A program made the translations under genes and the position numbers. Shown in pieces: positions 7,865-18,794 of a stretch of DNA of 64,000 nucleotides; position 1 is the first letter of the stretch, and each line of letters begins with the position of its first letter. Under the pieces are notes generated by a model, which made no database searches, was not told the origin of the DNA, and saw nothing but the letters and a program-made list of their open reading frames with translations. Location: positions 32,001 through 96,000 of IMG/VR virus record IMGVR_UViG_3300021399_000106; one strand, 5' to 3'. Origin of the DNA: a virus. Its lineage: Duplodnaviria; Caudoviricetes.

Positions 7865-7964
7865 AAGACAGTTACAGCAATTCTAAATGCTAGACAAATG
7901 GATAAGTCAATTTCCTGCTAAGAAATCATTTTGGGTTCAAATCCCAAGCAAATAAAACTGTCTT
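7865..7964 (+). ncRNA. Handle RNA 1 carrying a tRNA(GCT)-like body
   Basis: AAGACAGTT-ACAGCAA...AACTGTCTT; D arm, loop CTGCTAA and T arm inside; no CCA. Confidence 0.75.
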
Positions 7965-7970
7965 GTATAT

Positions 7971-8046
7971 GGGGCATTAGCTCAGCTGGGAGAGCGTCTG
8001 TTTTGCACGCAGAAGGTCACCGGTTCGATCCCGGTACGCTCCACCA
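7971..8046 (+). tRNA. tRNA-Ala (TGC)
   Basis: Cloverleaf, CCA. Confidence 0.93.
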
Positions 8047-8203
8047 TATAGATTGTACCTGTTACTATAGAACAGTTATGATAAATATAAAGCGTTCATT
8101 TGATAAATGAAAGAAAGATAAAGTGGTGATTTATCTCCTTCCGATATACTGGTGGGATAGCTTATAAGCTAGTGTTAAGCCTAGGACAATTAACACTTAA
8201 AAT

Positions 8204-8279
8204 GCCGACTTAGCTCAATTGGTAGAGCAACTGACTTGTAATCAGTAGGTTGTGGGTTCGATTCCTATAGTCGGCACCA
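8204..8279 (+). tRNA. tRNA-Thr (TGT)
   Basis: Cloverleaf, CCA. Confidence 0.95.
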
Positions 8280-8302
8280 TAAAAATAAATATTTAAGATA
8301 TA

Positions 8303-8419
8303 AAGACTCATACTGCAATTATTCCATTCTAGGATTTTTAGCTCATTTGGTAGAGCGTCAAACTTGTAATTTGAAAGTAGCAGGTTCAAGTCCTGCAGAA
8401 TCTATGATAAACGAGTCTT
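8303..8419 (+). ncRNA. Handle RNA 2 carrying a tRNA-Thr(TGT)-like body
   Basis: AAGACTC-ATACTGCAA...GAGTCTT; cloverleaf at about 8331-8403 without CCA. Confidence 0.78.
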
Positions 8420-8425
8420 GTAAAT

Positions 8426-8502
8426 GGACATGTAGCTCAGTTGGTTAGAGCTCCCCGCTCATAACGGGGCGGTCCTAGGTTCGAGACCTAGCTTGTCCAC
8501 CA
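8426..8502 (+). tRNA. tRNA-Ile2/Met (CAT)
   Basis: Cloverleaf; GGAC acceptor resembles Firmicute Ile2. Confidence 0.88.
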
Positions 8503-8509
8503 GTTAAAT

Positions 8510-8585
8510 CGCCCCATCGACAAGCGGCCTAAGTCATTGGACTTTCTATCCAACATCGCCGGTTCGAATCCGGCTGGGGTGACCA
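8510..8585 (+). tRNA. tRNA-Glu (TTC)
   Basis: Cloverleaf, loop CTTTCTA (T37). Confidence 0.85.
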
Positions 8586-8589
8586 TAAT

Positions 8590-8667
8590 CGTCGCGTAGT
8601 GGAATTGGTTAACACACTTGCCTCTCAAGCAAGAGATTTACGAGTTCAAATCTCGTCGCGTCGACCA
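8590..8667 (+). tRNA. tRNA-Glu (CTC)
   Basis: Cloverleaf, loop CTCTCAA. Confidence 0.85.
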
Positions 8668-8672
8668 TAATT

Positions 8673-16197: not shown

Positions 16198-16207
16198 GAG
16201 GTAAATT

Positions 16208-16468
16208 ATGTATATAGAGCCAAAAGTAAATGAATTAAAAATTGGAGATAGCGTATATATTAGACAAACTGCACCAATGGACGATGAAGAAGAATATCGT
16301 TTTTATGAATCTATAATTTATAAAATTGAAGGAGATAAAATTTATAGTAAATATACTACAAATAATCTAAAATTTAATTTTAAAAAGGAAGATGTATATT
16401 ACATAGAAGGTAAAGATAAATACTATGTAAATAGATTTGAAACTCGTTGGAATGGAATATACGGATAG
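16208..16468 (+). CDS. Hypothetical protein
   Basis: AGGAGG RBS. Confidence 0.65.
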   Translation: MYIEPKVNELKIGDSVYIRQTAPMDDEEEYRFYESIIYKIEGDKIYSKYTTNNLKFNFKKEDVYYIEGKDKYYVNRFETRWNGIYG

Positions 16469-16479
16469 GGGATAGAATT

Positions 16480-16911
16480 ATGGCATATAGAACTTATATA
16501 AATGGTCATGAATGGTTAGGCAATAACGTATTATATGATGAAATATATGATGAATTAAAAAGACAAGGTTGTCCATTTGATGAAGATTGTTGTGTAGGCT
16601 GAGAAACACCATTTGAGGTTAAGGATTTAGATAGTTTAGTTAAGGCAACAGAAAAAGCTATAATTAACTTATATAACAAAAGAATACAGATAAAAGAGAA
16701 TATTGCAGATTTTTCTGAGTATATTACTCATCCTATTGGTGATCTCACTTGGCAATTACAAGAAGCTAGAGACTATGGTTACATATTTATAAGTGCAATG
16801 TTATTAGAATATGTAGGAGAATGTCATAAACAGTGGGATTTCGAATTTACTAAATCAGGTATGAAATATGTACTAATTAATGATGGTAAATGTTTATTTT
16901 CTGCTTATTAA
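16480..16911 (+). CDS. Hypothetical protein (1 in-frame TGA)
   Basis: 143 aa in code 4; fills the gap in the ORF track. Confidence 0.7.
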
Positions 16912-16922
16912 GGAGGAGTAAT

Positions 16923-17429
16923 ATGAACTATAATTTTGATAAAGATATATTATATCAAGTTATGACCGAAGGAATATGGTATTATAATAAATTAGGAGAA
17001 GTAGGTCATAATACAAACGTAAAAGTAGATACACATTATATTAATTTTAAAGTTTTTGGAAGAAATATGGGTTTTAATTGGAAAGATTTAAATATAAAAT
17101 TCTTTTTAACCAAAAATGAAGCTGAAAAAGCAGCTAAAGAATATTTAGATTATCTACTAAAATATGTTGATATTAGTACTCTTAAAAAGATAGTTAATTT
17201 AAAAGAAAATGATGAAATAGTTGAATTAAGTTCTTCAAAACATTTATTTCATAGAACAGTTGAACAGTATTCTTACTGGGATAAAAAGAGAAAAACATTT
17301 ATTATTGTAAGTGAATATGATGACGATTATGGTGGAGGATATGATGAATTTGAATATCCTATTCATGAATATGGTCATTCTTGGTTTTTAACTGAAAAAG
17401 ATGCAAAGGAACATATTTATAATTCGTAA
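16923..17429 (+). CDS. Hypothetical protein
   Basis: AGGAGG RBS. Confidence 0.7.
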   Translation: MNYNFDKDILYQVMTEGIWYYNKLGEVGHNTNVKVDTHYINFKVFGRNMGFNWKDLNIKFFLTKNEAEKAAKEYLDYLLKYVDISTLKKIVNLKENDEIVELSSSKHLFHRTVEQYSYWDKKRKTFIIVSEYDDDYGGGYDEFEYPIHEYGHSWFLTEKDAKEHIYNS

Positions 17430-17461
17430 TAATTGTATATTTATAAAAGGAGAATTAGATT

Positions 17462-17881
17462 ATGAGTGATTTAAATTCGTTAGTTTTTAGTAAAAAAGAG
17501 CAAGAATTAGGATTGCATTTAGATTTTATAAATACATTATTAAAATTAAATAAAGAAAGTACAGATCATTATATAGAATTTTTAGTTAGACAAGAAGAGG
17601 ACTTTGTAATTATAGAATGATGTCAAATTAATTATCATTGTGAGGATTGTTATAGTCATTTTAAATTAGTTGAACCTGACCAAGTAGTTATGCTAGAATA
17701 TAGATTTCCTGATAACCACACTGAATATGTTTTTAGTGAAGAAGAAGGAAAAGAATTATTGGACGAATGATTAAAGGAAAATCCTGGTTGGGAAAAAGGT
17801 CCTTATGGTACTTGATATAATAAAATTGAGAATGATAGATTAAGAAAAGAATTTGGTTTAGATAAAGAAGGTAACGAATAA
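17462..17881 (+). CDS. Hypothetical protein (3 in-frame TGA)
   Basis: AAGGAG RBS; 139 aa in code 4; stop overlaps next start. Confidence 0.7.
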
Positions 17882-18417
17882 TGGGAAGAGAAATTATCGT
17901 TCAAATAAGAGATAGAAGTAGAAACTTTCAAGTTATGGATGAAGATTATGTTTGTGGTAGAGATGATGCTACAAATTATATTGCTCAATTAATTTATAAT
18001 AGAAGAGAAACTTTACCTGAAGTAGATGAGGATAATTTAGAAGGAAGAGAGTTAAGTGACAGATATTCCTTAATATTTGATATAAGTAATAAAGAGCAAT
18101 TTCATGAATTATCCGATATTTGTAACAGATTAAAAGAATATGCTGATGAAGATTATGCTGAAATAAATAAAGCAAAAGAAACATTAGCAGATTTAAAAAT
18201 TGCAAGAAGAAATTGTAGTATATATGAAGAATTTGAAAAATTTTCAGAAGCAATTGAGACAACTCAGGAATGGTTAGATAATGAAGACTATTCTAGAGCA
18301 GGTTCGTTATTAGATATGATTAATGACTGTAAAAGAATGATAGAAAATCAAAATACACCGGAAAGTAGTTTACCTTCTAATGGAAAATATGAAATTGTTA
18401 TTATTTTAAGCGAATAA
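17881..18417 (+). CDS. Hypothetical protein
   Basis: 178-aa ORF. Confidence 0.7.
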   Translation: MGREIIVQIRDRSRNFQVMDEDYVCGRDDATNYIAQLIYNRRETLPEVDEDNLEGRELSDRYSLIFDISNKEQFHELSDICNRLKEYADEDYAEINKAKETLADLKIARRNCSIYEEFEKFSEAIETTQEWLDNEDYSRAGSLLDMINDCKRMIENQNTPESSLPSNGKYEIVIILSE

Positions 18418-18487
18418 TTTTAACTAAATTAATTGTATAATATATATGAGGATAAAAAATATCCTTATTCCTATTATAAATAATGGT

Positions 18488-18577
18488 TAGTTACACACAG
18501 CAATTTAATAATACAAATACATGAACAACATTTATATCATTGTTTGGATACGAAAGTAATTAGTAGGTTCGTAACTA
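18488..18577 (+). ncRNA. Handle RNA 7 (no clear tRNA cargo)
   Basis: TAGTTAC-ACACAGCAA...GTAACTA. Confidence 0.65.
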
Positions 18578-18710
18578 GAAAAAAGTAATTTACTAATGAG
18601 GAATAGTATCGCGGCGCATATAAGTCACCTTGATGACAAATATTATATGTAGCTGTAATTATAGTTAACGCTATAACAATTCAAAGGAGTTGAAATATCC
18701 TTTAATAAAA

Positions 18711-18794
18711 AGTCGCATACAGCAAAATAAAAAATCTTTTAAAAAGAAGACAAATAATACAATCAAAAAAATTATTTTGATAGTTATGGCGACT
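18711..18794 (+). ncRNA. Handle RNA 8 (AT-rich cargo)
   Basis: AGTCGC-ATACAGCAA...GCGACT. Confidence 0.65.

Follow-up and report, generated by a model that had tools for sequence, protein, structure and literature searches.

A covarying RNA handle with tRNA-like cargo beside DUF2828-vWA genes of phages and bacteria: a candidate relative of the Ro60/Y-RNA particle

Y RNAs carry their Ro60-binding motif (GNCGAAN0-1G, or CGAA) in a loop next to the terminal stem, and Ro60 grips the 5′ strand of this conserved stem-loop region (PMC4201824; PMC12135203). Chen et al. (2014) found Y RNAs encoded beside the gene for the protein and on the same strand, in a survey drawn from TROVE-annotated genomes only (PMC4201824). 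We analyzed a 64,000-nucleotide stretch of a phage genome of the class Caudoviricetes, which we call the window (bases 32001-96000 of the 166.5-kb IMG/VR record IMGVR_UViG_3300021399_000106, whose completeness is estimated at 93%). In this window, eight RNA elements (e1 to e8) share a terminal stem with an adjoining ACWGCRA motif, together called the handle here, and lie around a gene for a protein with DUF2828 and vWA domains. The pairing of DUF2828 protein and handle RNA looks like an undescribed cousin of the Ro60/Y-RNA particle.

The new locus resembles the Ro60 (Rsr)/YrlA system in several ways. A fold match of the protein's model to Ro60 suggests a ring protein made of helical repeats and a vWA domain with a metal-ion-dependent adhesion site (MIDAS). 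One to several small RNAs lie beside the gene on the gene's strand, and their paired ends (a 7-bp covarying stem in our case) stand next to a conserved motif in the 5′ strand. In addition, elements e4 to e6 contain the module of T arm, acceptor and D arm that is found in YrlA. However, the protein belongs to DUF2828/DUF7788 and is not detected as TROVE, the RNA motif is ACAGCAA instead of GNCGAAN0-1G, and the best YrlA score in the window is 21.6 bits, as opposed to a cut-off of 69 bits. Also unlike YrlA, the cargo enclosed by the handle includes bare anticodon arms and whole tRNAs, and some relatives have a capped, permuted handle inside a tRNA-like body. The system fails the sequence definitions of both TROVE and YrlA, and its predicted protein architecture is that of the Ro60/Y-RNA particle.

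Ro60 is also encoded by the Thermus phage phiLo (PDB 9kop, 9l5y), where the RNAs Yrl1 and Yrl2 lie upstream of the gene; in each, a stem of the 5′ and 3′ ends flanks an internal loop with the protein-binding motif, and binding of the protein to its own RNAs and to PNPase was shown by electrophoretic mobility shift assay (PMC12135203). The DUF2828 protein is likewise phage-encoded, and the phiLo chains are the best Foldseek matches of its model. However, phiLo Ro60 is a recognized Ro60 homologue with a CGAA motif and experimentally shown binding, whereas the DUF2828 system is known from sequence and models.

The Salmonella rsr-yrlBA-rtcBA operon (Hughes et al. 2020, PMC7790460) resembles our locus in that enzymes of RNA repair accompany a Ro-type protein and its small RNAs. 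The repair enzymes near the DUF2828 gene, namely Tpt1, an Rnl1-like ligase and an ATP-dependent ligase, differ from those of the Salmonella operon. Moreover, the linkage to repair genes is not conserved among DUF2828 loci, and we saw no RtcR-type regulator. A further comparison is with phage systems directed against nucleases. T4 Pnk and Rnl1 counter PrrC, and a tRNA-Lys variant of T5 counters PARIS. Phage tRNAs and repair enzymes acting against anticodon nucleases are a general theme (PMC9503650). The putative conflict in our case would also concern anticodon loops, above all that of tRNA-Lys(UUU), which is the commonest cargo. By contrast, the T4 and T5 systems consist of working tRNAs or enzymes, whereas here the anticodon arm is detached and fused to a handle.

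The original prediction, which was made from the window's letters, placed eight handle elements around the DUF2828 gene. On direct reading, all eight are present at the following positions, and all are on the + strand. Bit scores marked R1 or R2 are from our covariance models of the handle.

7865-7964, + strand: e1, open-handle RNA; handle AAGACAGUU/AACUGUCUU plus ACAGCAA
8303-8419, + strand: e2, open-handle RNA; AAGACUC/GAGUCUU plus ACUGCAA; R2 31.5 bits
12348-12408, + strand: e3, minimal handle RNA; AGACAC/GUGUCU plus ACAGCAA; R1 53.7 bits, R2 44.7 bits
12426-14057, + strand: DUF2828-vWA gene, 543 amino acids; assigned by Pfam, PHROG 850 and AF2 (AlphaFold 2)/Foldseek/VIA
14070-14229, + strand: e4, open-handle RNA; folding energy -52.2 kcal/mol, z -6.0; R2 28.9 bits
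14256-14395, + strand: e5, open-handle RNA; R2 19.4 bits; weak YrlA match at 14300-14370, 21.6 bits
14441-14572, + strand: e6, open-handle RNA; R2 36 bits
18488-18577, + strand: e7, open-handle RNA; UAGUUAC/GUAACUA plus ACAGCAA; R2 42.3 bits
18711-18794, + strand: e8, open-handle RNA; AGUCGC/GCGACU plus ACAGCAA; z -3.6

The 5′ halves of the elements align as W-A-G-N-Y-N-N, two spacer bases and AC(A/T)GC(A/G)A, and the 3′ halves consist of an A-rich run, the complementary arm and then (A/T)G. The stem pairs that had been claimed to covary (AGACAG/CTGTCT, AGACTC/GAGTCT, AGACAC/GTGTCT, AGACAT/ATGTCT, AGTTAC/GTAACT and AGTCGC/GCGACT) are all correct. The helix has 7 bp, with the base preceding AG covarying with the base that follows CU, and the G after the 3′ strand is invariant or nearly so. 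Six of the eight elements have two bases between the stem and ACWGCRA; in e1 and e5 the stem continues through the spacer.

A first MAFFT alignment comprised 17 short copies, taken from eight IMG/VR contigs, Bacillus phage Tsamsa and the phage studied here. In this alignment, 98.3% of the helix cells are paired, and there are compensatory changes at six pairs. One round of model searches extended the set to 64 phage and bacterial sequences, in which pairing is 99.3% and all seven pairs exhibit double changes, although this alignment was fitted to the model and thereby favors the structure. When the 3′ partner was shifted by 1-3 columns, pairing fell to 28-48%. This control and the earlier MAFFT alignment argue that the covariation is not an artifact, and the handle thus stands as a genuine covarying motif. 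ACAGCAA is near-invariant in the 64 sequences, with its positions 1, 2, 4 and 5 (A, C, G and C) invariant or nearly so. The stem contains G-U pairs, and 101 of 101 matches (34 in phage loci, 67 in bacterial loci) lie on the strand of the DUF2828 gene. Both properties indicate an RNA element and not a DNA element.

Within the window, the 5′ pattern AGWYNNNNACWGCRA has nine exact matches, all on the + strand, of which eight are the elements and the ninth lies inside the DUF2828 open reading frame (ORF) with no closing arm. This ninth match, a perfect 5′ handle word (AGTTAGCAACAGCAA) at 12949-12963 that lacks a complementary arm downstream, is probably due to chance. With filters off, model R2 finds all eight elements at E ≤ 0.05, and no other match in the 64 kb has an E value below 0.3. 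The complete genome of 166 kb, scanned with the stem taken into account, yielded no copies beyond the eight. Under default filters the same model returns zero matches in the window or in one related locus (L005), which is a filter artifact on AT-rich sequence. Since the open-handle model misses AT-rich copies with these filters, the open-handle counts given below are lower bounds. Taken alone, the word AYWGCRA occurs in the window about as often as expected (63 times, with 61 expected), so it is the stem and the word together that give the signal. A loose scan for stem plus motif was noisy, specificity being confined to the full pattern.

Co-occurrence of handle RNAs and DUF2828 genes in other genomes, which had been proposed as a test, was borne out by the covariance model, which found the linkage far beyond this phage and always on the gene's strand. 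All 34 matches in the window, nine IMG/VR loci and Tsamsa lie on that strand, as do all 67 matches in 80 bacterial loci, which include metagenome-assembled genomes (MAGs) and represent Lachnospiraceae, Treponema and other lineages. The matches in bacterial loci are mostly at most 800 nt upstream of DUF2828 or just downstream of it. Among 121 genomes of one bacterial family, an open-handle RNA occurs in 12 of the 15 that have DUF2828 and in none of the 106 that do not (Fisher p = 3.9e-14), and all 18 matches in this set precede the gene by at most ~700 nt and share its strand. One 3-Mb genome gave a single match, which lies just upstream of the DUF2828 gene and on its strand.

The reverse search began from the handle. 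At least 114 viral stretches contain an exact 15-nt word of the handle; we examined 80 of them, with 83 matches. The exact closing arm is present for 55 of these 83, and in 18 of the 55 cases the examined stretch itself contains DUF2828, always on the same strand. We looked further at five handle-bearing records without the gene in the stretch: all four near-complete ones carry DUF2828 elsewhere, and the fifth, a 35%-complete fragment, has no DUF2828 gene. As a negative control, 15-mer matches without an exact GTGTCT arm were not clean, in that two of five such records carry DUF2828; these matches are probably variant handles.

Handle RNAs occur in various arrangements relative to the gene. 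In the window, e3 to e6 are within 520 nt of it, well inside the 4 kb in which bacterial Y RNAs are encoded next to their protein gene, and e1, e2, e7 and e8 are ~4.5 kb away. Copies downstream of the gene include e4-e6 and those of three other loci (L024, L034 and L059), and tandem arrays have up to six or more copies (L005, L023 and L064). In Tsamsa, at least five handles surround the DUF2828 gene gp247, and one handle RNA begins a few bases past a perfect TTGACA-17-TATAAT promoter. In the same phage (L003), two “tRNA-OTHER” pseudogenes of the public record, at 6042-6214, score 39-47 bits as tRNA, and a further handle match at 6453-6541 lies between annotated tRNAs; some phage “tRNA pseudogenes” may therefore belong to the handle-RNA family. 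A Methanobrevibacter MAG and an Akkermansia MAG also include short contigs that bear DUF2828 and handle RNAs (L043, L034 and L035). These contigs probably stem from phages and were mis-binned, and they do not speak for Methanobrevibacter or Akkermansia as hosts.

The DUF2828 frame is open under table 11. Its product has an N-terminal helical-repeat DUF2828 domain (Pfam E 7e-29) and a C-terminal vWA domain of the DUF7788 type (E 7e-44), and PHROGs labels PHROG 850 “RNA-binding protein”. An AF2 model built from 28 homologues has a predicted local distance difference test score (pLDDT) of 78 and a predicted template modeling score (pTM) of 0.72. When this model was compared to the PDB with Foldseek, ranks 1-13 were all Ro60 chains (E 2e-8 to 1e-5, ~530-600 alignment columns). 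VIA aligned model residues 10-496 to frog Ro60 (2i91_B) over 417 residues, with Z 16.6 and a root-mean-square deviation of 4.5; VIA-align against the Thermus phage Ro60 gave Z 15.7, and matches to the vWA domain only were near Z 11. The proposal of a Ro60-like protein is thus supported at the level of predicted structure. In Ro60 proteins, Y RNA sits on the outer surface of the ring, and the central hole takes up the ends of misfolded RNAs. The MIDAS residues DxSxS (D314, S316 and S318) are invariant among 34 diverse homologues, and the family is large, with 6,204 cluster representatives at E ≤ 0.001. DUF2828 proteins are also present in plants and other eukaryotes.

In many loci where no open handle was matched, Rfam reports odd “tRNA” matches, 95-157 nt long, immediately upstream of DUF2828. 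These RNAs score 33-51 bits as tRNA with inserts of 40-80 nt, and the acceptor stem, D arm and T arm of their tRNA-like body are normal. The D arm is separated from a short anticodon-like hairpin by a further hairpin of 6-7 bp, which has a tetraloop as its cap; two bases and ACAGCAA come after it. On the 5′ side of the loop, the sequence (...GUCUUG) is like the 3′ end of the open handle, and on the 3′ side (AAG...) it is like the 5′ end. This correspondence implies that the closed form is the open handle with its ends joined. RNAalifold applied to 20 closed RNAs predicts acceptor, D, handle and T helices, and compensatory changes occur at 19 of 23 pairs.

A strict test requiring a perfect hairpin followed by the motif upstream of DUF2828 found the closed form in 52 of 80 loci, as compared to seven of 80 for the opposite strand and 5.4 for shuffled sequences. 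Either form of the handle is present in 69 of the 80 loci. The closed class has its open counterpart in e5, where the opening lies between D arm and anticodon arm. That the handle works in both topologies suggests a folded module for recognition or structure and not a signal for end processing.

The interiors of the elements had been described as whole tRNA bodies, a lone anticodon arm, permuted tRNAs and AU-rich filler, and this description holds. Element e1 (R2 42.4 bits, E 2e-7) encloses a D-like hairpin, an anticodon arm (loop CUGCUAA, anticodon GCU) and a T arm, without an acceptor stem; ARAGORN reports tRNA-Ser(gct) at 7884-7955, and there is no Rfam tRNA match. Element e2 encloses a whole tRNA-Thr(UGU)-like body (8332-8404, Rfam tRNA 68.8 bits) with no encoded CCA and with an acceptor stem made imperfect by an A-A mismatch; of the eight elements, it alone exceeds the 29-bit cut-off of the Rfam tRNA family (RF00005). 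Element e3, whose end is 17 nt ahead of the DUF2828 start codon, carries a lone mimic of the Lys UUU anticodon arm, AUCAA-CUUUUAA-UUGAU, with the same loop (CUUUUAA) as the tRNA-Lys(UUU) that the phage itself encodes. In e4, a YrlA-type module consists of a T arm, a long acceptor-like hairpin and a D arm, and the handle occupies the place of the anticodon arm. The body of e6 is like a permuted tRNA-Leu, with a T arm, a loop-closed acceptor, a D arm and an anticodon arm (UAA). The T arm-acceptor-D arm module is present in e4, e5 and e6, but absent from e1, e3, e7, e8 and most short relatives.

Element e5 contains a circularly permuted tRNA-Asp-like body in the order anticodon arm (GUC), T arm, 3′ acceptor strand with GCCA, AU linker, 5′ acceptor strand and D arm. 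Circularly permuted tRNA genes are present in Cyanidioschyzon merolae, and as in these, the 3′ half of e5 precedes the 5′ half and a linker joins the acceptor ends after CCA. The same order of halves is seen in e6. Unlike in C. merolae, the breakpoints are bridged by an ACAGCAA handle, and most handle RNAs are not permuted tRNAs. We saw no bulge-helix-bulge motif at the permuted junction, and we know of no splicing endonuclease or bulge-helix-bulge processing in the setting of phage handle RNAs.

The interiors of e7 and e8 are AU-rich and lack a tRNA part. The 3′ end of e8 is ambiguous between 18794 and, via the alternative arm GCGACUAG, 18836; R2 prefers 18708-18836 (29.4 bits). The region after e8 (18795-18900) has a second GCGACUAG arm and a handle-like AAGACAAUAGCGAA, and the spacer between e7 and e8 (18578-18710) has an unusually GC-rich word at ~18628-18640. 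RNA-library contigs from three studies cover 18485-19000. More generally, metatranscriptome contigs from four studies of bovine, sheep and other animal gut contain relatives of the tRNA block, the DUF2828 gene and the stretch with e7 and e8, at 90-99% identity.

To quantify anticodon arms in the cargo, we used a strict criterion: five of five pairs and a 7-nt loop Y-U-NNN-R-N, with T loops excluded. Such hairpins occur in 33 of 94 non-redundant open-handle RNAs, as compared to 2.3 ± 1.4 in 500 shuffles (maximum 8), which is a ~14-fold enrichment. The loops are nearly all CU-NNN-AA, and Lys-UUU is the commonest cargo (7, versus 0.07 expected). Tandem arrays mix anticodons, e.g., Lys, Gly and Phe in one locus (L039). 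In e3 and at least 20 other short RNAs, the cargo consists of an anticodon arm only.

A sister phage (L004), whose DUF2828 protein is 74% identical, has orthologous RNAs that keep the handle and body and differ mainly in the anticodon. Three ortholog pairs could be compared. The e2 orthologs are near-identical, with a single base changing UGU to UCU and an acceptor stem that is imperfect in both; e1 changes from GCU to UCC; and in e5 the whole anticodon arm is replaced (GUC to GCA). The sequences are suggestive of a turnover of anticodons between the sister phages. Given that e1 has no acceptor stem, such swaps are hard to square with ordinary decoding tRNAs. The idea of a panel of tRNA mimics is thus strengthened both by the enrichment of anticodon arms and by the anticodon differences between orthologs.

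The handle had been thought distinct from the Y-RNA consensus, and a scan of Rfam 15 agrees: no family matches it, and YrlA does not attain its gathering threshold in the window or any of 22 related loci. The best YrlA (RF02553) scores are 21.6 bits for e5 (E 0.56), where only model positions 27-81 are matched, and 21.9 bits for a relative in L064; the gathering threshold is 69. In the handle, the CGAA motif is replaced by ACAGCAA. Our literature searches, whose coverage did not extend to subscription journals, found no description of the pairing of DUF2828 with ACAGCAA, so a prior report is possible.

The window has a GC content of ~27% and contains 32 tRNA genes in a single block. Two further features adjoin the RNAs around the DUF2828 gene:

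11727-12284, + strand: Tpt1/KptA RNA 2′-phosphotransferase gene; PF01885, E 6e-48; PHROG 5470; directly upstream of e3
14587-14617, + strand: AU-rich hairpin (UUGGUAUU/AAUACCAA) followed by a U run, as read from the sequence

Judging by its sequence, the hairpin at 14587-14617 is likely an intrinsic terminator that closes a DUF2828-e4-e5-e6 transcription unit. A scan for consensus terminators missed it because its stem has too few G-C pairs. For a phage with 27% GC, the promoter and terminator scan was uninformative, with 53 promoter-like sites as compared to 59.7 in shuffles.

A link to Tpt1 had also been proposed. The adjacency is real in this window, but it does not extend to the system in general, since a tblastn search of 205 loci found one other Tpt1 neighbor. 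A Tpt1 homologue (46% identical) lies ~2 kb downstream of DUF2828 in an Acetatifactor MAG (L045:7636-8166). This phage's region also encodes an Rnl1-like ligase and an ATP-dependent ligase; by tblastn, both ligases and the neighboring small ORFs have zero homologues near DUF2828 in the 205 loci.

Some other neighborhoods merit mention. Among the tRNA genes of another phage contig is a ROOL RNA (RF03087, 197 bits; L009:1848-2415), with a handle RNA ~400 nt and the DUF2828 gene ~550 nt downstream of it; ROOL, tRNA arrays and the handle/DUF2828 system may share a genomic island. The sister phage has a transfer-messenger RNA gene (tag ATLNNAPRAYAFA) inside its tRNA block (L004:15292-15671), directly preceding tRNA-Trp and an e1-type handle RNA. 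In Lachnospiraceae bacterium COE1, a gene with a PIN domain (VapC-like) and a small upstream ORF (L041:2702-3363, minus strand) are divergent from, and adjoin, two closed-handle RNAs and DUF2828. The other neighbors there (radical SAM, peptidases) look cellular rather than prophage. VapC toxins cut tRNAs, and this adjacency may or may not be meaningful.

We consider it likely that the eight elements are small non-coding RNA genes of one family, whose handle docks on the DUF2828 protein and whose cassettes of tRNA parts are presented to tRNA-directed proteins. The system is most likely a Ro/Y-RNA particle of a second kind, one by which modules of tRNA are displayed. By analogy with the docking of the Y-RNA terminal stem and a CGAA-type motif on Ro60, the DUF2828 ring would bind the helix together with single-stranded ACAGCAA on the 5′ strand, which would keep the tRNA module beside the ring. 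The interior would then act as a cassette for one of several tRNA parts, be it an anticodon stem-loop by itself, a complete tRNA body or a T-acceptor-D module in permuted form, and the particle could present these look-alikes to tRNA-acting proteins in conflicts between phage and host. The likeliest role would be that of a decoy or trap for anticodon nucleases or other tRNA-directed toxins. Alternatively, the RNA may tether tRNA-recognizing repair or decay enzymes to the ring, much as Y RNA tethers PNPase to Rsr. We favor a role in conflicts over tRNA in view of the predominance of Lys-UUU, the apparent anticodon turnover, the phage tRNA islands and the nearby Tpt1 and Rnl1-type ligase.

Several points weigh against this interpretation. 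Eleven of the 80 bacterial loci have neither form of the handle, although several of these are truncated upstream, and three of the 15 DUF2828-positive genomes lack an open-handle match. Elements e7 and e8 and many relatives lack a tRNA-like part, so tRNA mimicry is not universal; RNAs of the e2 type could simply be tRNA precursors; and the anticodon comparison comprises three ortholog pairs. As to the protein, the TROVE Pfam model (PF05731) finds no match in it or anywhere else in the 166-kb genome, whereas control genomes gave matches, and searches of PDB sequences with phmmer (single sequence) or a 28-sequence profile returned nothing relevant. The proposed homology with Ro60 is read from a predicted fold with pLDDT 78. 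The RNA-library data are assembled contigs that give neither ends nor strand and might reflect DNA carry-over. The discrete RNAs are predictions, their binding by the protein is an extrapolation from computational data, with the genomic linkage as indirect evidence, and we identified no target nuclease or partner enzyme.

One rival explanation is that the system is already known, namely an ordinary Ro60 ortholog whose Y RNAs are of the YrlA type but divergent. Elements e4 to e6 have the T arm-acceptor-D arm order that is the hallmark of YrlA, e5 and the L064 relative do have weak YrlA matches (21.6 and 21.9 bits), the protein has a predicted Ro60 fold, and the RNAs stand on the same strand beside the gene as in Chen et al. 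(2014, PMC4201824). Nevertheless, these scores are far under 69 bits and restricted to the tRNA-like part, GNCGAAN0-1G/CGAA is absent with ACAGCAA in its stead, the TROVE Pfam model and the PDB sequence search both miss the protein, and most members lack the T-acceptor-D module. The Chen et al. survey, moreover, began from TROVE-annotated genomes (PMC4201824). We therefore judge this explanation to be quite improbable. Somewhat easier to entertain, but still unlikely, is that handles are maturation clamps of unusual tRNA genes, in which the helix marks where the precursor is cut to give working tRNAs (with re-ligation of the permuted copies by the phage ligase and Tpt1) and DUF2828 is at most a chaperone. 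Such clamps would fit the whole tRNA bodies in e2 and its relatives, the order of 3′ acceptor strand with GCCA, linker and 5′ acceptor strand in e5, which is like that of permuted tRNA genes, the Rnl1-like ligase and Tpt1 in the region, and the location of elements within tRNA arrays in many loci. However, e1 keeps a canonical anticodon arm while lacking an acceptor stem, and the anticodon arms of e3 and at least 20 other short RNAs cannot become tRNAs; e7 and e8 have no tRNA part. The acceptor stem of e2 is imperfect in both orthologs, whose otherwise identical bodies differ by a Thr-to-Arg change of anticodon. The closed form retains the handle inside a tRNA-like body, and the adjacency of Tpt1 and ligase is not conserved.

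The handle could instead function in cis, as an operator in the DUF2828 mRNA leader or as a signal for RNase processing or punctuation of a tRNA cluster, with no stable RNA acting in trans. Most copies are indeed 60-700 nt upstream of the gene and on the same strand, e3 ends just before the start codon, and the window has no enrichment of promoter-like sites. A cis element does not readily explain tandem arrays of six or more copies, copies downstream of the gene (e4-e6, L024, L034 and L059) or 4.5 kb away (e1, e2, e7 and e8), the Tsamsa copy with its own consensus promoter, or closed forms embedded in bodies with tRNA-type ends, and an operator has no need of anticodon arms. We regard a purely cis-acting handle as very unlikely. 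Finally, the elements are short inverted repeats that adjoin a conserved word and occur several times per genome, and they could in principle function as DNA, i.e., as binding sites, recombination sites or a miniature mobile element. Yet the G-U pairs are mismatches on the opposite strand, the orientation is strict, the arms covary while the interiors are unrelated, and the motif is built into tRNA-like folds; we also saw no target-site duplications or linkage to transposases. Repeats acting at the DNA level thus appear extremely improbable.

A bolder version of this proposal is tentative, and we hold it to be possible but doubtful. It states that DUF2828 proteins and ACAGCAA-handle RNAs make up a widespread second Ro/Y-type particle, whose RNA joins a constant docking handle to an exchangeable part, either an anticodon stem-loop or a tRNA body that lacks the anticodon. 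In phages and prophages, panels of these cassettes with fast-changing anticodons would serve as protein-protected decoys or tripwires against defense toxins that cleave or modify tRNAs. If true, this would be an RNA-based counter-defense of an undescribed kind. Should the decoy idea hold, the known counter-defenses of phages would gain a particle of RNA and protein. The eukaryotic DUF2828 proteins, in plants and other lineages, may in that case also have RNA partners.

Ro60 and Y RNAs have been studied for decades, and the purpose of the tRNA-like domain in bacterial Y RNAs is, to our knowledge, still unknown. The candidate sister system has thousands of protein relatives, an RNA partner that is easily recognized and cargo that points to tRNA. 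Cultured entry points are available in Tsamsa-like Bacillus phages and Lachnospiraceae isolates. The system would give a name and a partner to a large family of domains of unknown function, and would account for many odd “tRNA pseudogenes” with long inserts in annotations of phages and Lachnospiraceae. Its cargo of bare anticodon arms, anticodon-poor tRNA bodies and switching anticodons provides a testable hypothesis for what a microbial Ro-type particle does.

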